Shown here one piece after another: positions 49,397 to 64,000 of a DNA stretch of 64,000 nucleotides (within the stretch, counting starts at the first letter, position 1; the number at the start of each line of letters is the position of its first letter). Position numbers and translations under genes: made by a program. The notes beneath the pieces are model-generated. The model was not told where the DNA came from and ran no database searches. It saw nothing but the letters and a program-made list of their open reading frames with translations. This DNA is from Casimicrobiaceae bacterium (GTDB lineage: Bacteria > Pseudomonadota > Gammaproteobacteria > Burkholderiales > Casimicrobiaceae). The stretch covers positions 261 to 64,260 of the forward strand of contig JAYRNW010000216.1 of NCBI GenBank assembly GCA_041911995.1, read 5' to 3'.

Positions 49397-49560
49397 GGGA
49401 ACGGAAACGGGGCGATGACGGGAGGGCGGCGGCGACGGCGGGGCAAGGGTACGGGCGAACGCGCGCGGCGGTCAAGTGGCCAGACCGGTTGCGCGGCGCC
49501 CGCCACTCGCGGCCTTTCCCCACCACTATAATCGCGCGTCCCCTCGCCCGGTACAACGCC

Positions 49561-50592
49561 ATGACGACGCTGCTGCAGACCACGATCGCCGGTAGCCTGC
49601 CCAAGCCCGCGTGGCTCGCCGAACCCGGCGCGCTGTGGGCGCCGTGGAAGCTCGACGGCGACGCGCTCGCGCAGGGCAAGCAGGACGCCGTACGCCTCGC
49701 GCTGTTCGACCAGGAGCACGCCGGCATCGACATCGTCACCGACGGCGAGCAGACGCGGCGGCACTTCGTCACCACGTTCATCGAGGGGCTCGACGGCGTG
49801 GACTTCGCGCTCAAGCGGACCGTGCGCATCCGCAACCGCTACGACGCCGACGTGCCGGTCGTCGTCGGGCCGGTCGCGCGGCGGCACCCGATCTACGTCG
49901 ACGACGCCCGCTTCGTCCGGGGACAGACGCAGCGCAAGGTCAAGTACACGCTGCCCGGCCCGATGACGATGGTCGACACGCTCTACGACGCGCACTACCG
50001 GAGCCGCGAGAAACTCGCGTGGGCGTTCGCCGAGATCCTGAACGAGGAGGCGCGCGCGATCGCCGCCGCCGGCGTGGACGTGATCCAGTTCGACGAGCCG
50101 GCGTTCAACGTCTACTTCGACGAGGTGCGCGACTGGGGCGTGGCGGCGCTCGAGCGGGCGGCGCAGGGGCTCGCCTGCACGACGGCCGTCCACATCTGCT
50201 ACGGCTACGGGATCAAGGCCAACATCGAGTGGAAGAAGACGCTGGGCTCCGAGTGGCGGCAGTACGAGCAGACGTTCCCGCTGCTCGCGGGCTCGAAGAT
50301 CGGCCAGGTGTCGCTCGAATGCGCGAACTCGCACGTGCCTCTGGAGCTCATGCGGCTGCTGGCCGGCAAGGACGTGCTGGTCGGCGCGATCGACGTGGCG
50401 ACCGACCGGGTCGAGACGCCCGAGGACGTCGCGGCGACGCTGCGCGCCGCGCTCGCATACGTGCCCGCCGAGCGGATGTACCCGTGCACGAACTGCGGGA
50501 TGGTCCCGCTCGCCCGCGACGTGGCCCGGGGCAAGCTCCGGGCGCTCGCCGCCGGGGCGGCGCTGGTCCGCCGGGAGCTCGCGGGGGTCTGA
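49561..50592 (+). CDS. mesD: Single-domain cobalamin-independent methionine synthase (MesD-like)
   Basis: AGSLPKP.WLA, DGEQTR.HFVTTFIE, HICYGYGIKAN, NCGM; close to my recollection of proteobacterial MesD. Confidence 0.8.
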   Translation: MTTLLQTTIAGSLPKPAWLAEPGALWAPWKLDGDALAQGKQDAVRLALFDQEHAGIDIVTDGEQTRRHFVTTFIEGLDGVDFALKRTVRIRNRYDADVPVVVGPVARRHPIYVDDARFVRGQTQRKVKYTLPGPMTMVDTLYDAHYRSREKLAWAFAEILNEEARAIAAAGVDVIQFDEPAFNVYFDEVRDWGVAALERAAQGLACTTAVHICYGYGIKANIEWKKTLGSEWRQYEQTFPLLAGSKIGQVSLECANSHVPLELMRLLAGKDVLVGAIDVATDRVETPEDVAATLRAALAYVPAERMYPCTNCGMVPLARDVARGKLRALAAGAALVRRELAGV

Positions 50593-50658
50593 GCCGGGGG
50601 CCGGAACGCCCCCGGACGGGGCCCCGGCCGGCAATTCCCCACCAACGTACTAGGGTAT

Positions 50659-50686
50659 TTGCAAACCGGCCGGATTCGCGTATGCT
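50659..50686 (+). promoter_or_regulatory. Sigma70-like promoter for csp, followed by a long AT-rich 5' UTR
   Basis: TTGCAA-N16-TATGCT about 150 nt upstream of the csp ATG; long leaders are typical of csp genes. Confidence 0.5.
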
Positions 50687-50833
50687 CCCAAAGGTGTTTT
50701 GTTTCAAGTACTAGAGCACGCCAAAGCCCGGCACGAGCTTCCGCCGCGGTCCCGTACTTTTCTGTCCTTGAGAATGAAACATGGGGCGGGCATCCGCCCG
50801 CCGATTATTTTTTATCTTGAGGAAATACGGAAA

Positions 50834-51037
50834 ATGGCAACTGGCACCGTGAAGTGGTTCAATGACGCGAAGGGTTTCGGGTTCATCACGCCGGACGGCG
50901 GCGGCGAAGATCTGTTCGCGCATTTCTCGGCAATCAACATGCCCGGCTTCAAGACGCTGAAGGAAGGCCAGAAGGTCTCCTTCGAAGTCACGCAGGGCCC
51001 GAAGGGCAAGCAGGCGAGCAACATCCAGGCGGTCTAG
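50834..51037 (+). CDS. Cold-shock protein (CspA family)
   Basis: [34 protein letters not shown]. Confidence 0.97.
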
Positions 51038-51137: not shown

Positions 51138-54100
51138 TCAGGCAAGGCTGCGCAATTCGCGCAGCGCCACCGACAGCATTGCCGCATCGGGCGCCGGCGC
51201 CGTGCGCAGCTCGTCGATGAGCTGCGCCGCCCGCTCGAGCGCGCGGCGATTCCGGTCCTCCCAGGCGGCGACGAGCGCGGGCGTCTTGGCGGTGGCGTCG
51301 CCGTCCGCGACGACGTGCGCGGTCACCGTCCGCGCGAGGCCCGCCAGGTCGTCGTGCATGGCGCTGCGCGCCAGCGTCTGCCAGTGCGCGTCGCCGGGCA
51401 GCGCCGCGATCTTCTCGCGCAGCCACGCGAGCCCCAGCCGGTCCGTCACCGCGAAGTGGACGGCGGCGACCGCGTCCACCGGCCGGTCCGCGGTCGCGGC
51501 GACCTCGGCGATGTCGAGCGCCGAGTACAGCGTGTCGAACGTGACGACGCGCTCGGCCAGGTCGCGCGGCACGCCGGAGGCGGCGAGCGCCGCGACGGCG
51601 GCGTCCACGCGCGCGCGCTCGGCGGGCGCGATCAGCTTCGGCAGCCGCGCCGAGAGCGCCTCGACGTTGGGCCGGAAATGGGCGATCGTCGCCGCCATGT
51701 CGTCGCCCAACCGGCGCGAGCGCAGGAACCACAGCGTGCCGCGCTCGAGCTGGCCGCTGGTGTCGATCAGCATCGCCGACTGCACGGCGTCGTCGACCCT
51801 GTTGTCGAGCGCCTCGATCGCGTGCCACAGCGGCACCAGCCCGAAGATCTCGCGGGCGAGCAGGTACGCGCGGACGACCTCGTGGGGCTTCGCGCCGGTC
51901 GTCTCCGCCAGGCGGTGCACGAACGTGCTGCCGACGCGGTTGACCATGCTGTTCAGCACGTGCGTCGCGATGATCTCGCGCTTCAGCGGATGCCGGTTCA
52001 TGTACGGCGCGTACTTCGGCTGCAGCGCGGCGGGGAAGTACCGCGCCAGCGCGGTGGCCACCCACGGGTCGTCGGGCAGCTCCGAGGCGACCAGCTCGTC
52101 GGCGAGCCAGAGCTTGCAGTACGCCAGCAGCACGGCGGCCTCCGGGCTGGTGAGCCCGGCCCCCGCCTTGCGCCTCGCGGCGATCTCGTGGTCCGACGGC
52201 AGGAACTCGATCGCGCGGTTGAGCCGGCCGGCCTTCTCGAGGTAGTGCATGAAGCGCGCCTGCGCATCGAGCAGCGCCGGCGCGATGCGCTTGGTCACCG
52301 ACAGCACCTGCGTCTGGAAGTAGTCGTCGCGCAGCACGAGCGCCGCGACGTCGTCGGTCATCGCCGCGAGCAGCGTGTTGCGCTGCTTCCCGGTCAGCTC
52401 GCCGTCGGCCACGGCGAGCCCGAGCAGGATCTTGATGTTGACCTCGTGGTCGGACGTGTCCACGCCGGCCGAATTGTCGATGGCGTCGGTGTTGATGCGC
52501 CCGCCGGCCTGCGCGAACTCGATGCGGCCCAGCTGCGTGCAGCCCAGGTTGCCGCCCTCGACGAAGACCTTGCAGCGCAATTCGCGGCCGTTCACGCGCA
52601 GCGCGTCGTTCGCGCGGTCGCCGACCTGCGCGTGCGTCTCGGACGTCGCCTTCACGTACGTGCCGATGCCGCCGTTGTAGATCAGATCGACCGGCGCCTT
52701 GAGGATCGCGTTGACGAGCTCCGTGGGCGTCAGCGCGTCTGCGTCGATCGCGAGCGCGGCTCCGACCTCCGGCGTGATCGCGATCGACTTGGCGCTGCGC
52801 TCGTGGACGCCGCCGCCTGCCGACAGGCGCTTCACGTCGTAGTCGGCCCACGACGAGCGCGGCAGCCGCGCGATCCGCTCGCGCTCGGTGAGGCTCGCCG
52901 CGGCGTCGGGGTCGGGGTCGAGCAGGATGTGCCGGTGGTCGAACGCCGCGACGAGCCGGATGTGCGGCGACAGCAGCATGCCGTTGCCGAACACGTCGCC
53001 CGACATGTCGCCGATGCCCACGACCGTGAAGTCGGTCGCCTGCGTGTCCACGCCCATCTCGCGAAAGTGGCGCTTGGTCGCCTCCCACGCGCCGCGCGCG
53101 GTGATCCCCATCGCCTTGTGGTCGTAGCCCGCCGAGCCGCCGGACGCGAACGCGTCGCCCAGCCAGAATCCGTACTCCTCGCTGACGGCGTTCGCGAAGT
53201 CGGAGAAGGCGGCCGTGCCCTTGTCCGCCGCGAGGCCGTGGTCGGGGTCGTCGCGGGGGTGCCGCCGCACCGGGGGCGGCGGGACCACGCGGTCGCCTGC
53301 GCGGTTGTCGGTGAGGTCGAGCAGCCCGCGCAGGTAGTCCTGGTAACAGGCGATGCCTTCCTTCAGGTACGCGTCGCGGTCACTCGCCGCGGGCGCGCGC
53401 TTCAGCACGAAGCCGCCCTTCGAGCCGACGGGCACGATGACGGTGTTCTTCACCATCTGCGCCTTCATGAGGCCGAGCACCTCGGTACGGAAGTCCTCCG
53501 GCCGGTCGGACCAGCGCAGGCCGCCGCGCGCGACCGGGCCGCCGCGCAGGTGCACGCCCTCGAACCGCGTCGCGTAGACGAAGATCTCGAACGCGGGCCT
53601 GGGCTCCGGCAGCCCGGGCACCTTCGCCGGGTCGAACTTGAACGACAGGAACGGCCGCCGTCGCCCGGCCGCGTCGCGGCGCCAGAAATTCGTGCGCGTC
53701 GTCGCCAGGATCAGCGCGAGGTACTGCCGCAGCACGCGATCCTCGGACAGGTTCGCCACACCGTCGAGCGCGGCCTCGATCGCGCGCACGGTTTCGCCGG
53801 CGCGCGCGGCCGCCCCGTCGCCGCCGTCCGGCGCGAAGCGCGCGTCGAAGAGGTCGATCAGCCGCCGCGCGATCCCGGCGTGCGCCGACAGCGTGCCCTC
53901 GATGAACGTCTGCGACAGCGCGAAACCGGTCTGGCGCATGTACTTCGCGTAGGCGCGCAGCACGACGATCTGCTCGGCCGGGATGCGCGCCGCGACGACC
54001 AGCCGGTTGAAGTCGTCGCTCTCGACCTCGCCGCGGAAGATGCGGCCGAACGCGTCCTCGAACACCTCGTGCAGCGCGTCGACCTCCATGTCGGCGTCGG

Positions 54101-55967
54101 GCAGCGCCGTCTGGATGCCGAAGTCGTGCATCCAGACCGGCGGCATGCCGTCGGGCGTGACGCGGTGCGGGCGCTCGTCGAGCACACGCAACCCCATGTG
54201 CTCCAGCATCGGCAGGCTGTCGGACAGCGTCACCGGCCGGCCCAGGTGGATGAGCTGGAAGCGCAGCGTGCCGGGCGGAGCCTCCAGCGGACGGTACAGC
54301 GAGAGCGCGAGCGGCTCGGCCTCGGACAGCCGTGCCATCAGCGCGATGTCGGGGACCGCGGCGCGCGCGGGGAACTCCTCGCGGTAGCCCGCCGGGAATG
54401 CGTGGCCGAACCGGCGGAAGCGCTCGTTGCCCTGCGCCTCGCCGAGCGCGTCGACCAGCGCCGCCTTCAGGTCGTCGGTCCAGCGCCGCGCGGCGTGCCG
54501 CAGGCGCGCCTCGAGGTCGCGGACGTCGAACTCGGGGATCGCGCCCGGATTGGTGCGCACCGTGATGTGGATGCGCGCCAGCATCGATTCGGACAGGCTC
54601 ACGTTGAACTCGGAGCTCGTGCCGTTGAACGCGGTCTTGAGGATCGACTGCCACTTCTGCCGCATGTCGGTCGAGTAGATCTCGCGCGGCGCGTAGATGA
54701 GGCACGACACGAAGCGCTCGAACGGGTCGCGGCGGACGAACAACCGGAAGCGCTGGCGATCGTACAGGTGCAGGATGCCCATCGCCGTCTGCAGCAGGTC
54801 GTCCTCGCCGGTCTGGAACAGCTCGTCGCGCGGATACGTCGCGAGGATGTTGAGCAGCGCCTTGCCGGCGTGGCTGCCCGGCGTCAGGCCGGCGCGCGCG
54901 ACGACGTTGGCGACCTTCCGGCGCAGCAGCGGGATCTCGGCCGGGTTCGCGCTGTACGCGGTCGACGTGAAGAGGCCGAGGAAGCGGTCCTCGCCGACGA
55001 CGTTGCCGGCCGCGTCGAAGCGCTTGACCGCGATGTAGTCGAGGTAGCCGGGGCGGTGCACGGTCGACCGCGACGTCGACTTGGTGATGACGAGGAGCTC
55101 CGGCCGCCGCGCGTAGGCGCGGATCTCCGGCGGCAGCGCGGCGAAGCTCGCCGCGACGTCCTTCGGCGCGCGCTCGCGCAGCACGCCGAGGCTCGAGCCC
55201 GCGACCACCTTGAGCGCGTCCTGTCCGTCGGCGCTCACGAGCTCGTGCCGGCGATAGCCGAGGAACGTGAAGTGGTTCTCCGCGAGCCAGCGCAGGAACG
55301 CGCGGCCCTCGTCGAGCTCGTCCTGGGGAATGGTCGGCGGCCGTGCGGCGAGTTCCGCCTCGACGGCGAGCGCCACCTGCTGCATCGGCTTCCAGTCGCC
55401 GACCGCCGCACGCACGTCGGCGAGCACGCGCGCCAAGTCCGCCGCGAGCGCGTCGAGCGCCGCATGACCGGTGACGCGGTCGACCTCGACGTGGATGAAC
55501 GACTCGCGCACCGCGCCCGGCGCGCCGGCCGCCGCGAGCCCCGCGAGCGTGCCGTCGGCGCCGCGCGCCACCGTGAGGATCGGGTGGACGATGAGGTGCA
55601 GCGTCAGCCCGTGCCGGTTGGCCTCCATCGTCATCGAGTCGACGAGGAACGGCATGTCGTCGTTGACGATCTCGACGATCGTGTGCGTCGACTGCCAGCC
55701 GTGCTCCTCGATCGTCGGGTTGAACGCGCGCACGCGCACGCGGCCCGGCTCGCGCTTGCGCGCGAAGCTCCAGTGCGACAGTGCGGCTCCGTACAGGTCG
55801 GCCAGCTGGCGGTCGGCGAGATCGTCCGGGTCGACCTGTCCGTAGTATTCGCGCACGAAGGTCGCGAGCGCCGCGCGCTGCTCGGGCGCGACCTTGGCCT
55901 CGACCAGCGCGACCAGTTCCGCCAGGCGTTCCATGCGGCGATCCTGTTCGACCGTGCTGCGGTTCAT
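51138..55967 (-). CDS. gdhB: Large NAD-specific glutamate dehydrogenase
   Basis: DDMPFLVDS, ARGGLRWSDR.EDFRTE, AADKGTA, GDMSGDVFGNG, DNSAGV..SDHEVN; GGAG RBS. Confidence 0.95.
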   Translation of the reverse strand: MNRSTVEQDRRMERLAELVALVEAKVAPEQRAALATFVREYYGQVDPDDLADRQLADLYGAALSHWSFARKREPGRVRVRAFNPTIEEHGWQSTHTIVEIVNDDMPFLVDSMTMEANRHGLTLHLIVHPILTVARGADGTLAGLAAAGAPGAVRESFIHVEVDRVTGHAALDALAADLARVLADVRAAVGDWKPMQQVALAVEAELAARPPTIPQDELDEGRAFLRWLAENHFTFLGYRRHELVSADGQDALKVVAGSSLGVLRERAPKDVAASFAALPPEIRAYARRPELLVITKSTSRSTVHRPGYLDYIAVKRFDAAGNVVGEDRFLGLFTSTAYSANPAEIPLLRRKVANVVARAGLTPGSHAGKALLNILATYPRDELFQTGEDDLLQTAMGILHLYDRQRFRLFVRRDPFERFVSCLIYAPREIYSTDMRQKWQSILKTAFNGTSSEFNVSLSESMLARIHITVRTNPGAIPEFDVRDLEARLRHAARRWTDDLKAALVDALGEAQGNERFRRFGHAFPAGYREEFPARAAVPDIALMARLSEAEPLALSLYRPLEAPPGTLRFQLIHLGRPVTLSDSLPMLEHMGLRVLDERPHRVTPDGMPPVWMHDFGIQTALPDADMEVDALHEVFEDAFGRIFRGEVESDDFNRLVVAARIPAEQIVVLRAYAKYMRQTGFALSQTFIEGTLSAHAGIARRLIDLFDARFAPDGGDGAAARAGETVRAIEAALDGVANLSEDRVLRQYLALILATTRTNFWRRDAAGRRRPFLSFKFDPAKVPGLPEPRPAFEIFVYATRFEGVHLRGGPVARGGLRWSDRPEDFRTEVLGLMKAQMVKNTVIVPVGSKGGFVLKRAPAASDRDAYLKEGIACYQDYLRGLLDLTDNRAGDRVVPPPPVRRHPRDDPDHGLAADKGTAAFSDFANAVSEEYGFWLGDAFASGGSAGYDHKAMGITARGAWEATKRHFREMGVDTQATDFTVVGIGDMSGDVFGNGMLLSPHIRLVAAFDHRHILLDPDPDAAASLTERERIARLPRSSWADYDVKRLSAGGGVHERSAKSIAITPEVGAALAIDADALTPTELVNAILKAPVDLIYNGGIGTYVKATSETHAQVGDRANDALRVNGRELRCKVFVEGGNLGCTQLGRIEFAQAGGRINTDAIDNSAGVDTSDHEVNIKILLGLAVADGELTGKQRNTLLAAMTDDVAALVLRDDYFQTQVLSVTKRIAPALLDAQARFMHYLEKAGRLNRAIEFLPSDHEIAARRKAGAGLTSPEAAVLLAYCKLWLADELVASELPDDPWVATALARYFPAALQPKYAPYMNRHPLKREIIATHVLNSMVNRVGSTFVHRLAETTGAKPHEVVRAYLLAREIFGLVPLWHAIEALDNRVDDAVQSAMLIDTSGQLERGTLWFLRSRRLGDDMAATIAHFRPNVEALSARLPKLIAPAERARVDAAVAALAASGVPRDLAERVVTFDTLYSALDIAEVAATADRPVDAVAAVHFAVTDRLGLAWLREKIAALPGDAHWQTLARSAMHDDLAGLARTVTAHVVADGDATAKTPALVAAWEDRNRRALERAAQLIDELRTAPAPDAAMLSVALRELRSLA

Positions 55968-56345: not shown

Positions 56346-57443
56346 ATGCTGTGCCAGGCCCTTCGTGGCGAACCGTCGGCATGGCCGGAAGGAGACGCCG
56401 CGCGGCTCGAGCAGCAACTCCTCGAGTCCTGCCGCGTCGAGGCGGTCGGCCCCCTCCTCCATCACGGCCTGCGCCCGTCGGCGGTCGCGGCGACGTGGCC
56501 CCTTGCGGTGCGCGAGTTCCTCGCGCACGAGTCGAGGATGCACGCGGCGCTCGACCTGCTGCGCGAGAACGAGCTGCGCGTCGTGCTTGCCGCGATGGCC
56601 GCAGCGGGTATCGCGACGCTGCTGCTCAAAGGTGCGGCGCTCGGCTACACGCACTATCCCAGCCCGGCGCTGCGGACCCGTTGCGATGCCGACGTGTGGA
56701 TCCGGCCGGAAGACCGCGACGACGGCGCGCGCGTGCTGGAAGCCATGGGCTACGTACGCTACGACGCCATCGCCGGCTCGCTGGTGAGCTACGAGGATGC
56801 GTTCCGCAAGCGCTGCGGCACGATCGAGCACGTGGTGGACCTGCACTGGCAGGTCAACAACGGCCAGGTGTTCGCGCACGCGTTTGCCTGGGACGATGCT
56901 TACGCGCGTTCCGTGCCGGTGCCGCAGCTTGGCGCAAGGGTGCGCACGCCGTATCCGCCGCATGCGCTCCTGATCGCTTGCATGCACCGCGCGGCACACC
57001 TCGGCATGGAAGGTCCCGGCGGAGTCCGCCTCATCTGGCTCTTCGACCTGCACCTCATCGCCGGCGCGATGCGCGACTCCGAGTGGCAGGAATTCGTCGA
57101 GCATTGCAGGACCACGAAGATGCGCGCGATCGCGATGGATGCCCTCCTGTGCACGCAGCGGCGGTTCCGGACGGCGCTCCCCGCCGGTGTGATCGCCGCG
57201 CTGACGGAGCGCACGCCGCCGGAGCTCTCGGCCCGGTATCTTCACGCCGGCCGCGCCGGCGTCCTGCTCACCGATCTGCGGGCCTTGCCGACCTGGCGCA
57301 AGCGCGCGAGGCTGCTGCGCGAATCGTGGTTGCCCTCGCGCGATTACATGCACCGCAAGTTCCGGGGGCGCAGCCCCTGGCTGCTGCCGTGGTGGTATGT
57401 GCGGCGCGCGGTTGAAGGCGCGTTGAAACTCGCGCGCCACTGA
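56346..57443 (+). CDS. Nucleotidyltransferase family protein (NTP_transf_5-like, RiPP-associated)
   Basis: LLLKGAAL...Y....LR...DADVW, VDLHW, RLIWLFDL; start uncertain (alternative ATG 56211). Confidence 0.85.
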   Translation: MLCQALRGEPSAWPEGDAARLEQQLLESCRVEAVGPLLHHGLRPSAVAATWPLAVREFLAHESRMHAALDLLRENELRVVLAAMAAAGIATLLLKGAALGYTHYPSPALRTRCDADVWIRPEDRDDGARVLEAMGYVRYDAIAGSLVSYEDAFRKRCGTIEHVVDLHWQVNNGQVFAHAFAWDDAYARSVPVPQLGARVRTPYPPHALLIACMHRAAHLGMEGPGGVRLIWLFDLHLIAGAMRDSEWQEFVEHCRTTKMRAIAMDALLCTQRRFRTALPAGVIAALTERTPPELSARYLHAGRAGVLLTDLRALPTWRKRARLLRESWLPSRDYMHRKFRGRSPWLLPWWYVRRAVEGALKLARH

Positions 57444-57510
57444 GCGAGAGGCTCGCACCACGCAATTTCCGCTGCGCCAGTGCCGCGCAGGCCACGATCC
57501 CGGCTCCCCG

Positions 57511-58425
57511 ATGAATTTTGCCGAACGTTATCTCAACGAGCCCGACCTGTTTCCCGCGCGTCAGAGCGGCGAGCCTTGGGGCCCGGAGCAGGTGATCGTC
57601 CGGTTCGCAGGCAACGACTATCGCTGCACCGACTTGAGCGCAACGCAGGCTGCGGCAATGCGGGAGCGCTTCGGCGCGCTCTGCGTCCCGTCCGCCGACG
57701 GCTCGCGGCCGACGGCGGACATCCGCCTGTTCCGCGCGCCCTATTCGGATTTCGTGGCCGGCGAGCACGAGTGGGAGTTCGACTTCGCACTGGAATATGC
57801 GCCGGAATCCGTGTGCTTCGCCGGCTCCCACTTCGTGGGCCGCCTCGACTGGCAGCCGCACCTCCGGGCCGCCCTGTGGACGCCCGAGGACGAGCGCCTC
57901 GTTGCGCACGCCATCCTCGAGAACGTGCTCCGGACCGTGGTGGCGTATCACCTCCTGGAGCAGCGCTCGGTGTTGCTGCACAGCGCGGCCGTCGTCGACG
58001 GCGGCGGTGCGCACGTCTTCTTCGGTCCCTCCGGCGCCGGCAAGTCGACCATCTCGCGCCTCGGCGTCGCGAGCGGCCGCGCCGTCCTGAGCGACGACAT
58101 GAATGCGTTGCGCGTCACGGCCGAAGGCGTCGTCGCGGAGCAGCTGCCGTTTGCCGGAGACCTCGGCCAGGCCATGGCGACCGACGCCGGCAGGTACCCG
58201 GTGCGCAACCTCTGCCGCCTGCGCAAGGGGGACACGGCCAGCCTGCGCCCCATGCGGCCCGCGGCCGCCATCGCCGCATTGCTGGAGTGCGCGCCGTTCG
58301 TCAATCGTAACCCGTTCCGGCACGACGAACTGGTGGCAGCGCTCGCCGGCCTCAACGACAGGCTTCCGGTGCAGGTGCTAACATTTGCGCCCGACGCGCG
58401 CGTCTTCGACCTGTTCCGGCACTGA
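57511..58425 (+). CDS. HPr kinase-related P-loop kinase
   Basis: LLHSAAVV, FFGPSGAGKST, LSDD, PF.G. Confidence 0.8.
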   Translation: MNFAERYLNEPDLFPARQSGEPWGPEQVIVRFAGNDYRCTDLSATQAAAMRERFGALCVPSADGSRPTADIRLFRAPYSDFVAGEHEWEFDFALEYAPESVCFAGSHFVGRLDWQPHLRAALWTPEDERLVAHAILENVLRTVVAYHLLEQRSVLLHSAAVVDGGGAHVFFGPSGAGKSTISRLGVASGRAVLSDDMNALRVTAEGVVAEQLPFAGDLGQAMATDAGRYPVRNLCRLRKGDTASLRPMRPAAAIAALLECAPFVNRNPFRHDELVAALAGLNDRLPVQVLTFAPDARVFDLFRH

Positions 58426-58435
58426 AGCATTCGCG

Positions 58436-58714
58436 ATGACACTCACGACGACTTTCCGGAAGCGACCGGATGTCCGCTTTCGCAACATCGGCGGCGAGGG
58501 CATCGTCGTCATGCAATCCTCGGCCGAGGTCCTCGTGGTGAGCGAAGTGGGCGCGCGCGTGCTCGAGCTCATCGAGTCCGGCAACGCCGTCGGCGGCATC
58601 CTGACCGCGATCTCCGCGGAATACGACGTGGACAGCGCCGTCCTCGAGCACGACGCGCTGGCCTATCTGCAGCAGCTGCTGGATGCGGACGTCATCGAAG
58701 TCGCGACGGCCTGA
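58436..58714 (+). CDS. PqqD-family RiPP recognition element
   Basis: FRNIGGEGIVV..SEVGARVLELI...I...ISAEYDVD...LEHD...YL. Confidence 0.9.
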   Translation: MTLTTTFRKRPDVRFRNIGGEGIVVMQSSAEVLVVSEVGARVLELIESGNAVGGILTAISAEYDVDSAVLEHDALAYLQQLLDADVIEVATA

Positions 58715-58765
58715 TTCGCCGATGGCCGTCGCCCCGACGAACGCGAAACCGGACGGCGCCGTAGC

Positions 58766-59824
58766 GTGAGCTTCGGGCAGACGCAAAAGCGGATCTGGCG
58801 CGAGAACATCCTGTTCTCCGCGCTGGTCGAGCTCACCTACCGCTGCAACCTCGACTGCTACTTCTGCTACAACGACACCGGGCTCAAGGGCGCTCCCCTG
58901 ACGACCGCGGAGTACTTCCGGTTCTTCGAGGACCTGCGCGACCTGGGAACGCTCAACCTGACGCTGTCCGGCGGCGAGCCGCTCGCGCATCCCGAGTTCT
59001 TCGTGCTGGGCGCGAAGGCCCGCGCGCTTGGCTTCGTGGTGCGCGTGAAATCCAATGGTCATGCGCTGCGCGGCACGCTGGCGCGCCGGATGAAGGACGA
59101 GGTCGACCCGTTCATCGTCGAGGTGAGCCTGCATGGCGCTTCCGCCGACGTGCACGACCGCCAGACGCGTGTTCCCGGCAGCTTCGCGCGCCTCATGGCC
59201 AACGTCCGCGCGGCGCAGGCGCTGGGATTGCGGATCAAGCTGAACAGCCCCCTGACCGCGTGGAACGAACACCAGGTCGAGGCCATGTTCGCGTTGGCGG
59301 ACGAGCTGGCCGTGCCGATCCAGTTCGACGCGGAGGTCACGGGGCGCGACAACGGGGACCCTTCCCCGCGGACCATCAGCCCGTCGAAGGAAGGCGTTGC
59401 GAGGTTGCTGCAGGTGGAGCAGCGCCGGGCTGGCGCGCATTTTCAGGCCCGCGGGCCGGACCTGGTCCGTGCTGCGGACGCAGTCCCTGCGGAGCCGACG
59501 GATCCGATTCCCGACAAGCATTGCGGTGCGGGCTCCTCGTCGCTCACCGTGGATCCCTACGGAAACGTGTACCCGTGCGTGCAGTGGCGTCGGCGCGTGG
59601 GCAACCTGCACATGGACTCGGTGAAGGCGCTCTGGCAGGGTTCGCCGGAGCTGCACCGCGTGCGTGCGCTCGCGGTCGAGGTCAAGCAGACGGTCGATCG
59701 CTTCGGGGCACCCGGACTGGGATTCTGTCCGGGGCTCGCCGAACGGGAGGCCGGTCACGCCACTCGCGTGTATCCGATGGCGCAGGTCATGCTCGACCTG
59801 CGCAAGCGCCCGCAGGTGACGTGA
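58766..59824 (+). CDS. Radical SAM enzyme with SPASM/twitch-like C-terminal domain
   Basis: ELTYRCNLDCYFCY (CxxxCxxC), SGGEP, SNG, VSLHG, CGAG....TVDPYGNVYPC, FCPG. Confidence 0.93.
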   Translation: MSFGQTQKRIWRENILFSALVELTYRCNLDCYFCYNDTGLKGAPLTTAEYFRFFEDLRDLGTLNLTLSGGEPLAHPEFFVLGAKARALGFVVRVKSNGHALRGTLARRMKDEVDPFIVEVSLHGASADVHDRQTRVPGSFARLMANVRAAQALGLRIKLNSPLTAWNEHQVEAMFALADELAVPIQFDAEVTGRDNGDPSPRTISPSKEGVARLLQVEQRRAGAHFQARGPDLVRAADAVPAEPTDPIPDKHCGAGSSSLTVDPYGNVYPCVQWRRRVGNLHMDSVKALWQGSPELHRVRALAVEVKQTVDRFGAPGLGFCPGLAEREAGHATRVYPMAQVMLDLRKRPQVT

Positions 59825-59925
59825 CACCGGGTCCCGCCGGCGGCGATCCGGAACCGGCCACCGCACCCGAGCGCCTTGCGCGCCATCGTTCCCCTGGAGT
59901 ACGCGCCAAGCGGCATCGCGCCGCG

Positions 59926-60123
59926 TCAGGACTTCGCGATGCCGCAGATGGCCGCGTTCGGCTTGCCGCGCGACGTGCCGCCCGGGCAGGTCGCCGCCAT
60001 CGCCTCCAAAGCCTCGCGCGACAGGATCCGCGGGGGCTCGTATCGCTTGCGCGACGGGTGCCTTTCCGGCTGCGGAGAACTCGTCGTTGTCGTGGCGGCG
60101 GCCGGTTTCGTGTTGTCGGACAT
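59926..60123 (-). CDS. Putative RiPP precursor (65 aa) MSDNTKPAAATTTTSSPQPERHPSRKRYEPPRILSREALEAMAATCPGGTSRGKPNAAICGIAKS
   Basis: GGAG RBS; RRE-binding-type motif KRYEPPRI; two Cys and C-terminal Ser; fills the gap between the rSAM and C25 genes. Confidence 0.78.
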   Translation of the reverse strand: MSDNTKPAAATTTTSSPQPERHPSRKRYEPPRILSREALEAMAATCPGGTSRGKPNAAICGIAKS

Positions 60124-60182
60124 GATGCTCTGCTCCCGAATGCGCTTCGCCGGTGCTCGCAGCCGCCGCGCGCTGCCGGTTC

Positions 60183-63100
60183 TCAGCGCGGAATCCGCAG
60201 CGCCGGGTCGCCGATGACCTGGTAGATGTCCATCATATAGCGTTGCCCGCCCTTCCTGGCAAGGTCCGCCAGGGCGGATACGGCTGCCTCGCCAAGGGTC
60301 GCACGCGGGTTGGGTCCGGCCAGCGCGTCGACGAGACTCAGGCTCAACGTGCTCGCCTGCTCGTCGACGGACAGCCCGGTGGGCGCGAAGGCCGCGACGG
60401 CGCCGCCGCCCTTCCGCCACAGCAGCGTCTCCACCAGCGAGGTGGTGCCGGGATAGCTCCCATCGCCCACTTCGCAGGTGAACGCCGTGAAGATCGGCAA
60501 TCGCGCGCCGTTGTCGAGCAGGCTCACGTCGTCGTTGCTGAACAGCGGGTCGCCGGGGTCGTGCCCGAGTTCGAAGTACGCGCCGTGGCCAAAGTAGTTG
60601 AACAGTCCCACGCCGGTGGTCGAATTGAGCGCGGCGACCACCGTCTGGCGCACCTCGTTTCCAGACGCGCTTGCGGCACGATTGACCGTCGTCACGGCGA
60701 CTTTCCGGGACTGCAGGGCCTGTGCCACGAGCAGGCTGTCGGCCGTGAAATTACCGGCTTCCGGATCGGGGTTGTCGGCGACCAGCAGGGCCGGGCTCAA
60801 ACCGGTGCGCATGCCAACGGCCGGGAAGGCAGTCTCGTACGCGCGCAACTTGGCGACGTAGTTGGTGACATCGTCGACGGTTCGCGCGGGAATGCGGCCG
60901 ATGGCGATGTCGGGTACGCCGTCGTCGTTGAAATCGGCGTAGCGGTTGTCCGAGTTGAACAGGCCATTCGGCGTCGGCGCAAGAAGCACAGGGAAGAGGT
61001 TGTAGGCAAAACCCCGGTATTCCTTCGGGTCGATCGTGCCCTTGCCCAGCAGCGCGACATTACTCGGCCGCGTGCTCCAGTTCCGATAGGCGTACGCGAG
61101 GAAGTCCCGGATCGCATGCGGATTGGCGATACCGTAGTTGAACTCGTCGTAGATGTCCTGCAGGCCCACGACCTTTCCCCCGCGATATGCGGCGAGCAGG
61201 TCGGCCCCGGTGCGCAACGATTGGGGCGTCAGAACGAGGTAGCTTGCGGCATTTGCCGTGCTCTTCAGCGTCGACGGCGTGCCGGCCTCGACCGAGTACG
61301 GAGGCTGCGCTACGGCCGCGAGGTACGTCGGGACGGACCCGGTCGGCGCGAAACTGACGGCGAAAGGCGCGCCGGACGACACGGTGGCATTGCTCATCCA
61401 CCGCGGCTTGCGCGGATCGCTGATATCGAGCACGACGATGTCGGATCGGCTGAATCCGTCGACGCGGACCACCGCGTTGCCGGCGCCACGCAGGCGCAGG
61501 CGATCGCCGAGCGCCCGGTACGCACGCGAGTAGCCGACGTCGAACGCCTTCACCCAGAAGAAGCTGTCCGCGCCGGACGGCACGTCGGCGGTCATGCGGA
61601 CGATGTTGTCGCCGCTGTTGAGACAGCTCGCCGCAAACGGCTGCGTCGTGAACACCTGGGGCGCGATCCCCTTCCACGCGGGACTGGCGCCGAGGTCGCA
61701 ATTCTGGGACGACGGATTGAGCGTCAGGCGCGCGCTGCGCTGGTCGCTGCTCGCCCCCAGCATCGTCACGGTCAGGGTGGCGGTCCCCCCCGCGCCAGCC
61801 ACGTCCGGCACCGGGACCCGGAAGTCGGTCGCGCCGCCGCCGGCCCAGACGTAGTCCCAATACCAGAGGTCGGCGTCGGGATCGGTGAACAGGAAGTACA
61901 GCGGCTTGCCGTACTGCGCCACATGAACACTGGATGGGAACGACTGCCCCGCCGGCGCCGCACCGGAACGTGGAGCACCGGCGGTGCCCATCGCAAGCCC
62001 CGCGCCCTGGTCGAGCCAGTAGACGTTGTAGCGCGTGTACACGCTGTCGTTCCCGCTGACCGCCTCGCCGTAGAAGAACAGGCGATCATTCTGCGATCCG
62101 GCCTTCCAGGCGACCTGCTGGCCGCCCTGCTGCAGCCGCAGCTGGCTTCCAGCGATCCACTGGCGGACATCGATCGGATTCGCGCCGAGCGCGGTCGCGA
62201 TCTGGTCTGCGGTGATCACGTAGAGACCCTCGTCCTCGACCCGGATGCGCATGGCGGAGCCCGGGTTCGCGATCCCGGATGACGCGTTCTTCGGGCTGAT
62301 CGAAGCGGCGGGCGCGGGGTTGGCCACTGCGAGGTCGGATGCGTGCGCCACGCGCTCGAATTTCTGCGCCCCCGGCGTCGACCGCGGATTCGGCCGCACG
62401 GGGGCGACCTCCGCGATCGCGCGCCGGGGGGCCGGCTTCGCACTGCCCCCGACGACGGAGAACGGTCCGTAAACGCGTCGATTGCCGCTGGCTTCGATTT
62501 CCTCGATGCCGTAGGTGGTGGCGACACCGGGAACCACGAGCGGGTCCGCAAACCGATAGACCCCGCCCTGTCGCGTCGCCCCCAGCGCCGGCAGCAGTCG
62601 ATCGTTCAGCTTGACGAACGTGTCCGTGCTCGCATCGAGCCGATAAACGTTGAAGCCCGTCGTACCGATTTCCGAGGCGGTTTCCCACTCGAACCATGAC
62701 TGTCCGCCGGCGGCGTAAGCGCGGACATCCGCGATCACCGCGTGCGTGGCGAGAACCACGTCGGAGAACACGAGATCGGAAAGCCAGATGACCTGGACGC
62801 TCGGGTTGCCGCCACACCCGCCGCCGCAGTCCCCCGGCGTGTATTGAAGCAGGACCGAGCGAACGGACTTGGTCGCGAAATTGAACGATGCCCACGTCGA
62901 TGGATCGCTTTCGTTGCCCGCGCCACCGCCGGTGCCGGTTGCACTGACGGAATTGCTGGAAGTGCAAATCGATGTCGTCGTCGCGCCCGCAGGGCCGCCG
63001 CTGATCCCGTGCGACCCGGCCGCGACCGCCGCGGTCGCACACTGCCCGGTACCGGCACGGGCCCACCCGGGCGCCGCCGCGGTGAACTGGGTCAGGGCAT

Positions 63101-63647
63101 CGGGATTGATCAGCGTTCCGGTCGAATCCCGTGCCGTGACCGTGACGACATCCATGTAGTTGTTGGCGTTCGACCGGTCGATGTCCCGGACCGCGACGCC
63201 CCTGACCGACGCCGGCTTCGCGGTGCACGATGTCACCGTGGCGCCCGGCTGGCAGAACTCGTACAGCAACGTGATGTTCGACGTCGTGAGATTGCTGAAG
63301 TTGATGCCCAGAAACAGCTCCGGGCCCTGGCCCGGACTGTTGTTGAGGCAGGGGACGACCGGCGCGTTCCCCCCGCAGGGCCCCCCGCCGTACGACGACC
63401 AGGCCCCGTTGACCATTCCGATGCTCACCCGGATGTCGTACCCCGACCCCGCGACGTTCGCATAGACGCGCGGAGCGGTGGAGCCGGAGGTCCAGCCACC
63501 CGCCGTGGTCCAGTCGAACGTCCATTCGGTGGCCGCCGACTGCGGCACCACGCCGACGAGCGTCAGGATGCCGAGAAGCACGGCAGCAAAGAACCGTCCG
63601 GCGCCGCGGCCGATCGCCGACGCCGTGCATCGTGGATTCGTGATCAT
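60183..63647 (-). CDS. Large exported C25-family (gingipain-like) cysteine peptidase with an N-terminal beta/adhesin-like region
   Basis: Signal/TM segment; QDIYDEFNYG, ALLGKGT.D, SDN.Y.D...D..PDIAIGRIP, NYFGHG (His), FTCEVG (Cys), GGAVA, IGDP; ATGA overlap with the upstream gene. Confidence 0.88.
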   Translation of the reverse strand: MITNPRCTASAIGRGAGRFFAAVLLGILTLVGVVPQSAATEWTFDWTTAGGWTSGSTAPRVYANVAGSGYDIRVSIGMVNGAWSSYGGGPCGGNAPVVPCLNNSPGQGPELFLGINFSNLTTSNITLLYEFCQPGATVTSCTAKPASVRGVAVRDIDRSNANNYMDVVTVTARDSTGTLINPDALTQFTAAAPGWARAGTGQCATAAVAAGSHGISGGPAGATTTSICTSSNSVSATGTGGGAGNESDPSTWASFNFATKSVRSVLLQYTPGDCGGGCGGNPSVQVIWLSDLVFSDVVLATHAVIADVRAYAAGGQSWFEWETASEIGTTGFNVYRLDASTDTFVKLNDRLLPALGATRQGGVYRFADPLVVPGVATTYGIEEIEASGNRRVYGPFSVVGGSAKPAPRRAIAEVAPVRPNPRSTPGAQKFERVAHASDLAVANPAPAASISPKNASSGIANPGSAMRIRVEDEGLYVITADQIATALGANPIDVRQWIAGSQLRLQQGGQQVAWKAGSQNDRLFFYGEAVSGNDSVYTRYNVYWLDQGAGLAMGTAGAPRSGAAPAGQSFPSSVHVAQYGKPLYFLFTDPDADLWYWDYVWAGGGATDFRVPVPDVAGAGGTATLTVTMLGASSDQRSARLTLNPSSQNCDLGASPAWKGIAPQVFTTQPFAASCLNSGDNIVRMTADVPSGADSFFWVKAFDVGYSRAYRALGDRLRLRGAGNAVVRVDGFSRSDIVVLDISDPRKPRWMSNATVSSGAPFAVSFAPTGSVPTYLAAVAQPPYSVEAGTPSTLKSTANAASYLVLTPQSLRTGADLLAAYRGGKVVGLQDIYDEFNYGIANPHAIRDFLAYAYRNWSTRPSNVALLGKGTIDPKEYRGFAYNLFPVLLAPTPNGLFNSDNRYADFNDDGVPDIAIGRIPARTVDDVTNYVAKLRAYETAFPAVGMRTGLSPALLVADNPDPEAGNFTADSLLVAQALQSRKVAVTTVNRAASASGNEVRQTVVAALNSTTGVGLFNYFGHGAYFELGHDPGDPLFSNDDVSLLDNGARLPIFTAFTCEVGDGSYPGTTSLVETLLWRKGGGAVAAFAPTGLSVDEQASTLSLSLVDALAGPNPRATLGEAAVSALADLARKGGQRYMMDIYQVIGDPALRIPR

Positions 63648-64000
63648 GCGTTCTGCCAAGGAATGCCGAGCATCTTCTGCAACCTGCGCAATGCGGCGGA
63701 AGGCAATCCGCCAAGCCGGCGCCCGCCGGCCGAGCGACGGCCGGCCACCTGCCAACCTCGCATGATCACCCGTGCAAGCACGCAGTGTGCCAGCGAGGAT
63801 CGCCGCATGACCCAGGCCACGGCCCGCAGCGCCGCCGTCTCCCGCCGGAGGACGGCATGCTCGCCGTGCATGCGCCGCACGGCGACGACCACGCCAAGCA
63901 CGTCGGCAACGTGCACCGGCAGGTCAGGATGCGCCGTCGCGTCGCCCTGGGTCAGCAGCACGGCGTCCGGTGCGGCAGGCGACCTGCCGGTGACCCGATG
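63644..64000 (-). CDS. S24/S26 signal-peptidase-like protein, C-terminal part (runs off the window)
   Basis: Frame from 64000 reads HRV.......VLLTQGDA...PD.PV...DVLGVV, matching the S26 HR / GD boxes. Confidence 0.7.
   Translation of the reverse strand, partial: HRVTGRSPAAPDAVLLTQGDATAHPDLPVHVADVLGVVVAVRRMHGEHAVLRRETAALRAVAWVMRRSSLAHCVLARVIMRGWQVAGRRSAGGRRLGGLPSAALRRLQKMLGIPWQNA

Follow-up and report, generated by a model that had tools for sequence, protein, structure and literature searches.

A widespread candidate RiPP cassette adjoining a C25-family passenger-protease gene in a Casimicrobiaceae bacterium

We analysed a window of 64,000 nucleotides from contig JAYRNW010000216.1 (C216) of the Casimicrobiaceae bacterium assembly GCA_041911995.1. 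Its positions 56346-64000 are best read as an uncharacterised cassette for a peptide that is made ribosomally and then modified post-translationally (RiPP), which is widespread and conserved and whose product would be a cross-linked, phosphorylated peptide. The cassette encodes a 65-residue precursor, a radical S-adenosylmethionine (radical SAM) enzyme, a stand-alone PqqD-type RiPP recognition element (RRE), an HPr-kinase-like kinase, an S26-type peptidase, an NTP_transf_5 protein and a C25-family protein. We give about even weight to the proposal that the precursor is cross-linked at a Cys, phosphorylated at a Ser and cut by the S26 peptidase, and that the product works extracellularly with the C25 protein, most plausibly as the acceptor of the passenger which that protein carries.

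The 65-residue peptide is a genuine precursor, conserved beyond chance. A search with the radical SAM sequence returned 168 relatives, and the best 80 loci (53-66% identity), mostly from Thermoanaerobaculia, plus Competibacteraceae and other Proteobacteria, were used for locus counts. The kinase was present in 75 of the 80 loci, PqqD in 76 and an adjacent C25 gene in 44. The pattern used to search for precursors fixed only Y/W-x2-P-x-I/V/L and the first Cys. It gave 73 matches in 70 loci, of which two were junk, one was damaged and 70 (in 69 loci) were intact; a profile recovered one more at L088, beyond the pattern, and intact homologues were thus found in 70 of the 80 loci. A Lys between two Cys, the second Cys and a terminal Ser, none of them pre-selected, recurred in 70 of the 73 pattern matches, and all 70 intact precursors carry Glu at position -4, Ala at -1 and Cys at +3 (the Cys being fixed by the pattern). 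Elsewhere in the 3.75-Mb host genome the pattern occurred five times, never with the leader L-E-x-x-A or a terminal Ser. The first-pass annotation of this DNA had singled out the peptide YxxPxI...LE..A..C...K....C...S and suggested a genome-neighbourhood comparison as a check; that comparison bears it out, with the precursor kept beside the radical SAM gene and commonly lying behind the C25 homologue. Among nine loci without any pattern match, three stop right after the radical SAM gene. For 33 distant precursors the Cys, Lys and terminal Ser were partly built into the selection patterns, so that they provide no independent evidence, and seven distant loci that were checked gave no convincing precursor.

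All seven genes that the first-pass annotation had described, four on the plus strand facing three on the minus strand, were found where expected, with these features and family matches:

56346..57443, plus strand: NTP_transf_5 protein, PsmN/LppN-like (Pfam E value 1.8e-38; DxD at residues 114-116)
57511..58425, plus strand: HPr-kinase-like kinase (TIGR04352 E value 4e-6, far under the cut-off)
58436..58714, plus strand: stand-alone PqqD-type RRE (E value 3e-11)
58766..59824, plus strand: radical SAM enzyme (E value 4e-19; SPASM E value 3e-8, partial)
59926..60123, minus strand: precursor peptide gene, 65 amino acids
60025..60042, minus strand: predicted RRE-binding motif of the leader, Tyr28-Ile33, YxxPxI
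59929..59994, minus strand: predicted 22-residue core, Ala44-Ser65 (Cys46, Lys54, Cys60, terminal Ser65)
60183..63647, minus strand: C25-family protein, 1154 amino acids (PF01364 E value 2.5e-65)
63537..63647, minus strand: predicted signal peptide of the C25 protein, about residues 1-37 (hydropathy only)
62760..63536, minus strand: variable Cys-rich passenger region of the C25 protein, without NCBIfam or Pfam match
62454..62759, minus strand: conserved junction domain of the C25 protein, about 100 amino acids, W-x-T-x-S-E-x-G-T-x-G-F
60192..61241, minus strand: catalytic domain of the C25 protein, His1021 and Cys1058
63644..64000, minus strand: S26/SipW-like peptidase, 3' part, soluble (TIGR02228 just under the cut-off)

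The TGA of the S26 gene overlaps the ATG of the C25 gene as ATGA. The S26 gene continues 213 nucleotides beyond the window, to C216:64473, and its full form comprises 189 amino acids.

The cassette is very probably coupled in function to the C25 protein. In a sample of 161 genomes from the phylum of the Acidobacteriota genome G041, with a radical SAM threshold of E<=1e-60, the radical SAM gene was found in 17 genomes and the C25 module in 46, and the two adjoin each other in 16 of the 17 (15 of 16 without the centre genome). Another 34 genomes have C25 and lack a close radical SAM enzyme; in 21 of these, a more distant radical SAM-plus-kinase cassette stands beside the best C25 match. Among the 36 close loci without an adjacent C25 gene, 35 genomes were tested and 33 have the module elsewhere, one of them with eight matches and frames of up to 5,380 amino acids. 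The precursor lies less than 400 nucleotides behind the stop codon of a co-oriented C25 gene for 34 of the 43 precursors in C25-bearing loci, and locus L105 contains two C25 genes, each with its own precursor behind it, and a single enzyme set. The window's nearest radical SAM and C25 relatives largely share the same loci, and a search of 200 other genomes from its phylum did not turn up the C25 module. Tree distances of the radical SAM and C25 proteins are correlated (rho 0.46, 82 pairs, 0 of 500 permutations), which is only descriptive because kin share history. As a separate observation, inverted kinase-plus-PqqD copies flank the radical SAM and precursor genes on both sides at L011:6408-10558, in a genome in which no C25 was found.

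The leader is likely removed by the S26 peptidase rather than by the C25 protein. Full-length S26 scored 51.5 bits against TIGR02228, the archaeal-type signal peptidase family (cut-off 51.85), and has the catalytic residues Ser34, His72 and Asp97, of which Ser34, like the start of the protein, lies beyond the window and His72 at its edge. Seventy loci extend far enough upstream to be scored for an S26 gene, and one was found in 61 of them, almost always immediately before the kinase gene; that of the window differs in being of the Ser type and in its relocation in front of the C25 gene. Among 43 aligned cassette S26 proteins (e.g., L057:6027-6416), the catalytic Ser is replaced by Cys in 36, and 32 contain a second conserved Cys. 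According to the main text on linear polyphosphorylated peptides (LPP; PMC13381572), an S26-like peptidase there, helped by the RRE, cuts 16 residues past the leader-motif Tyr, and the phosphorylated core residue is Ser3; there is no crystal structure of the LppS complex. The precursors of the present cassette share this register, aligning at Tyr -16, Leu -10 and position -1; A-x-A precedes their cut, and the residue at +3 is Cys.

A three-chain model of RRE, precursor and S26, in which S26 was the scored partner and the RRE-leader contact was not scored alone, reached 0.77, compared to 0.01 for the best of three controls; of 157 solved complexes 116 attain the score mark, as do 2 of 215 mismatched pairs, figures that are no more than a rough guide here. 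The runs share at least 75% of contacts, the predicted local distance difference test score (pLDDT) of the partner is at least 81, and swapping out the RRE lowered the score to 0.01. Part of this pass may be likeness, because RRE-leader complexes have already been solved. In the model Ala41 contacts Leu28, Val30 and Val71, and Ala43 contacts Gly32 and Val71, beside Ser34 and His72; we take these two residues to be P3 and P1, as in the pockets of signal peptidase I. The RRE would bind the leader at YxxPxI, and the register and the model predict that S26 would cut with its help at Ala43|Ala44, leaving a 22-residue core with an unmodified monoisotopic mass of 2059.03 Da. The earlier suggestion that S26 and C25 both process the precursor is supported in its S26 half by register and model, whereas its C25 half is not: S26 alone would account for leader removal, and the C25 protein has a signal-like N-terminus and a variable passenger.

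The kinase retains His157, a Walker A motif at 172-180 and Asp195-Asp196, a pair resembling the one that is essential in PsmK. In the pseudomycoidin pathway, as described in excerpts of PMC6993621, PsmK phosphorylates the terminal Ser and PsmN is then needed for hexose addition. This precedent, and the fact that the core has Cys rather than Ser at +3, make the terminal Ser the likely target, and we expect with good but not full confidence that the kinase would (poly)phosphorylate Ser65. Among the 57 loci that include 5.5 kb or more of upstream DNA, the NTP_transf_5 protein was found in 39. Some of these copies belong to a second cassette, and few, e.g., those of L016 and L017, lie directly before the kinase; the protein is an accessory part and not the core component as which it had been listed. 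Where present, there is an even chance that it would add a hexose onto the phospho-Ser. As to the nucleotidylation or glycosylation envisaged before, a hexose is favoured and a nucleotide unsupported, as the characterised family member serves hexose addition.

In Thermoanaerobaculia a second cassette adjoins this one, at L057:9891-14340 and in some 24 loci like it, L030, L036, L070 and L073 among them. Its order is a secreted protein of about 490 amino acids, a peptide of about 25 amino acids, PqqD, a lasso B2 peptidase, an HprK kinase and NTP_transf_5. The peptide, found in 26 copies, has a lasso-type leader and would leave a three-residue core, Phe-Ser-Phe; no cyclase was seen in this cassette. 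It repeats the pattern of a secreted protein followed by a tiny phospho-peptide gene.

The C25 protein consists of a signal-like hydrophobic segment, a variable passenger, the junction domain and a PorU/gingipain-like module. We read it as a secreted protein that unites passenger and protease, and as a core partner of the cassette rather than a simple maturase. Among the C25 N-terminal regions compared, the window's passenger is shared only with L018 (40%). At L101-L104 the gene is split just past the junction domain, with passenger-plus-junction and protease separate and a new signal-like N-terminus on the protease half; these split genes mirror a cargo-plus-sortase arrangement. A single-sequence PDB search with the module gave no match and a profile was required, with which the sortase PorU was the best match among solved structures (131.6 bits; RgpB, 98.3 bits). 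We also noted eight C25-module matches on C2 and C3 of G048, a genome carrying one known cassette; several lie in open frames of 1,888 to 5,380 amino acids, and a further one is interrupted by three stops.

By analogy with PorU, the peptide may be a genetically encoded surface anchor for the C25 passenger, a tentative assignment that we hold to be level in likelihood with a regulatory-ligand role and, like it, doubtful when taken singly. In PorU-type anchoring, according to excerpts of PMC7468200, an aminoacyl amine is the acceptor, and an amide bond joins the cargo to the amine of a seryl or glycyl group carried by a sugar. In the window's system, the mature peptide would be exported and would then act outside the cell with the C25 protein, which would cleave its own or a neighbouring passenger at the junction domain and ligate it onto the peptide. 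The acceptor of the C25 acyl-enzyme in a PorU-like transpeptidation would be either the conserved Lys or the Ala freed at the N-terminus. The peptide, stiffened by its thioether, would be tied to a surface glycan by its phospho-sugar end, at the terminal phospho-Ser. An O-antigen-ligase-like gene, found upstream in 44 of the 80 loci, counts for anchoring.

A number of observations weigh against the proposal as a whole or in part. By fold, the C25 module is nearer to the plain proteases RgpB (Z 40.9, root mean square deviation [rmsd] 2.4, 319 residues aligned) and Kgp (Z 35.9) than to PorU, compared in its latent form (Z 18.9, rmsd 4.4, 255 residues aligned), and it scored 178.1 bits against the PorU model NF033707, the cut-off of which is 420. 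Searches of five genomes gave one copy of the junction domain or none, and in five other genomes only 4 of 24 proteins have it at the C-terminus; that it is a sorting signal of a large cargo family is thus unsupported. The window cassette has no O-antigen-ligase-like gene. A single-seed profile picked up an ABC transporter at just 1 of the 80 loci, which leaves the export step unexplained, and the window cassette has no MsbA-like one. As to the linkage, 13 of the 34 examined C25 loci lack a cassette (3 of these on contigs of at most 8 kb), and no precursor was found behind C25 in nine fetched unlinked C25 loci of cassette-bearing genomes (L171-L179; eight from six genomes). An intact precursor was not found in 10 of the 80 loci, nor a kinase in some loci with C25, radical SAM and precursor genes (L107, L167, and L168), and the spacing from Cys to Lys ranges from 0 to 8 across precursors. 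The locus counts are not independent, because most loci come from related Thermoanaerobaculia.

The mature peptide could instead be a ligand that regulates the C25 protein, either as a Lys loop inhibiting it or keeping it latent, or as an extracellular substrate that the protein clips, setting a signal free. We rate this equally tentatively. The one precursor per C25 gene at L105, the co-oriented placement, the Lys between two Cys in all 70 close homologues and the closeness of the C25 fold to Arg/Lys-specific gingipains all fit such a role. In RgpB the ES motif is followed by an acidic residue, which we take to be the Asp that sets S1 specificity. Its counterpart in the C25 protein falls on or next to an invariant Phe, at a gap that makes the alignment ambiguous, and gives Lys specificity of C25 no clear support. 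In addition, a distant precursor at L142 has no Lys, and a regulatory ligand leaves the variable passengers unexplained.

The radical SAM enzyme contains CX3CX2C at residues 27, 31 and 34 and as auxiliary Cys only residues 253, 271 and 321; these six are the only Cys invariant among 80 aligned sequences. It lacks the four ligands of AuxII, i.e., the second SPASM cluster. Since just three auxiliary Cys are kept, the radical SAM-SPASM label of the first-pass annotation stands for the radical SAM part and not for a full SPASM enzyme, and the motifs predict one auxiliary cluster with an open site. The spacing of the auxiliary Cys (18 and 50) is close to that of the three-Cys AuxI of CrpC (19 and 51), a thioether-forming enzyme for which the authors, in excerpts of PMC13692751, propose that the free AuxI iron binds a substrate Cys. 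A Foldseek search with the enzyme model (pLDDT 86) matched PqqE, SuiB, SkfB and CteB entries at 14-21% identity, and anSME also matched; at such identity, fold matches cannot fix the reaction. Cross-links to Trp or Tyr are disfavoured because 37 of the 73 pattern matches have a core without aromatic residue, and a fixed Cys-Lys bridge is disfavoured by the variable Cys-to-Lys spacing. Cys46 is favoured as thioether donor, since no other core residue keeps a constant distance from the leader. With somewhat better than even confidence, we suggest that the enzyme would abstract a hydrogen and form a Cys thioether, probably from Cys46.

That the enzyme forms no thioether is rather unlikely. It would then oxidise Cys46, e.g., to formylglycine, as anaerobic sulfatase maturases do, or modify the Lys, and the two Cys would form a disulfide. 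The anSME among the fold matches, the C-x-P found after the first Cys of many cores and the absence of a fixed spacing among Cys, Lys and Cys suit this explanation; the CrpC-like three-Cys AuxI pattern speaks for a thioether, as does the finding that precursor Cys number tracks cluster number: in nine radical SAM sequences inspected with their loci, two-cluster enzymes go with three-Cys precursors and one-cluster enzymes with two-Cys precursors. A distant branch with three-Cys precursors and adjacent Cys and Lys also occurs beside C25 (L096-L100, L109-L111, L145, and L148); the five radical SAM enzymes of this branch that were inspected retain the seven-Cys SPASM set, and the branch gives weak matches to SynChlorMet profiles.

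The first-pass annotation had pictured a free macrocyclic natural product that bears a phosphate and possibly a nucleotide and is processed by S26 and then by C25. The C25 protein does retain His1021 and Cys1058 and is co-oriented with the precursor, and at L016, as in the window, the NTP_transf_5 and kinase genes run in the same direction. We nevertheless consider this quite improbable, since S26 with the RRE would account for leader removal, the characterised NTP_transf_5 family member is needed for hexose addition, and C25 proteins, with passengers, up to 5,380 amino acids and up to eight matches per genome, do not look like a dedicated maturase. Least probable is that the peptide is an independent LPP-like product sharing only surface-polymer islands with C25. 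In its favour, LPP clusters also sit in capsule loci (main text of PMC13381572) and 13 of 34 C25 loci lack a cassette; against it, C25 adjoins 16 of 17 radical SAM genes, C25-precursor pairs are duplicated together, and both proteins have the same nearest neighbours across hosts.

In the host genome (66% complete, 3.75 Mb) the cassette is single-copy, and no paralogues or extra precursors were found there except for one distant radical SAM protein (29%). The GC content at third codon positions is 0.81-0.88 in all seven frames, and the cassette is slightly GC-poor (0.66-0.70 against 0.72). Contigs of sequencing runs X8 and X9, which come from one study and are not marked as source runs, bridge the end of the radical SAM gene, the peptide and the end of the C25 gene without differences. 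The holders listed for cassette DNA are mostly sludge or wastewater metagenomes, with no RNA dataset among the sequencing runs listed. A promoter and terminator scan gave chance-level results only. Among 40 relatives of the host no full-length kinase orthologue was found and partial weak matches occurred in 8, which makes the distribution of the cassette patchy. The cassette is flanked on one side by what we take to be an NAD-specific glutamate dehydrogenase gene (open reading frame [ORF] 51138-55967, minus strand) and by unrelated genes on the other. The stretch before ADKGT in this ORF departs from the pattern that we assume for the enzyme, possibly through an assembly error or a compensated frameshift. 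ORFs at 49489-51037 (plus strand) presumably encode cobalamin-independent methionine synthase II and a cold-shock protein.

At minimum, the cassette extends LPP logic by a radical SAM enzyme with one auxiliary cluster and an S26 that is often of the Cys type. The predicted cut site gives exact masses, so that the pathway is testable through simple co-expression. Its tight pairing with C25 proteins that carry passengers hints at a role for many orphan members of this family (found in 46 of the 161 genomes sampled) and bears on why phosphopeptide RiPP genes occupy polysaccharide loci, a question left open in the main text of PMC13381572. If anchoring were true, it would be a new Gram-negative route of protein attachment outside the T9SS (type IX secretion system) lineage, and a RiPP would gain a novel type of task.

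We found no description of this combination of genes in the open literature, which leaves subscription papers mostly uncovered. The likeness to SynChlorMet cassettes (TIGR04248-TIGR04251) seen in the first-pass annotation, which did not name LPP, extends to the set of kinase-like, PqqD and radical SAM genes; distant relatives of the cassette match ScmC, ScmD and ScmE weakly. Membership fails, with all scores far under cut-off: the window radical SAM enzyme reached 76.8 and 57.5 bits where the cut-offs demand 400, the window proteins gave no ScmC or ScmD match, and SynChlorMet has two radical SAM enzymes where the window has one.

With PorU and gingipains (excerpts of PMC7468200) the C25 protein shares the fold, the His/Cys dyad, the GHG motif and a PorU-like region before the catalytic domain. 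It differs in ending at the catalytic domain, in its fusion to variable passengers, in its tie to a RiPP cassette and in the hosts of the cassette-type proteins, Acidobacteriota and Proteobacteria. The T9SS families PF18962 and PF14349 matched none of five genomes, the positive controls being silent too. The sactipeptide and ranthipeptide maturases SkfB, CteB and CrpC (excerpts of PMC13692751) have the radical SAM fold, a three-Cys auxiliary cluster and a Cys-containing core in common with the window; unlike them, the window enzyme has no second auxiliary cluster, its RRE is a separate gene, and kinase, S26 and C25 are its partners.

The closest characterised system is LPP (lppA-K-B-S-D-N; Popov et al. 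2026, PMC13381572, main text, in which radical SAM, C25 and Acidobacteria are not mentioned). Both have a stand-alone RRE, a kinase of HprK-like type, an S26/SipW-like leader peptidase, an NTP transferase, a YxxPx[IV]L leader cut 16 residues past the Tyr, and links to polysaccharide loci. The window core has Cys at position 3, where LPP has a phosphorylated Ser, and its precursor has a conserved terminal Ser, a Lys and a second Cys; the LPP product is linear, whereas the window adds a radical SAM enzyme as cyclising candidate and a secreted C25 protein, and has no MsbA-like exporter among its cassette genes. Paeninodin and pseudomycoidin (excerpts of PMC6993621) share with it the terminal Ser, the Asp-Asp pair of the HprK kinase, the DxD of NTP_transf_5 and the stand-alone RRE. 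Unlike in these phosphorylated lasso peptide pathways, neither a macrolactam synthetase nor a B2 peptidase is among the window's seven genes, and, the synthetase being absent, any ring would come from the radical SAM enzyme. In how it handles the leader and tailors the peptide, the system resembles LPP and the pathways of phosphorylated lasso peptides, yet it is a member of neither.

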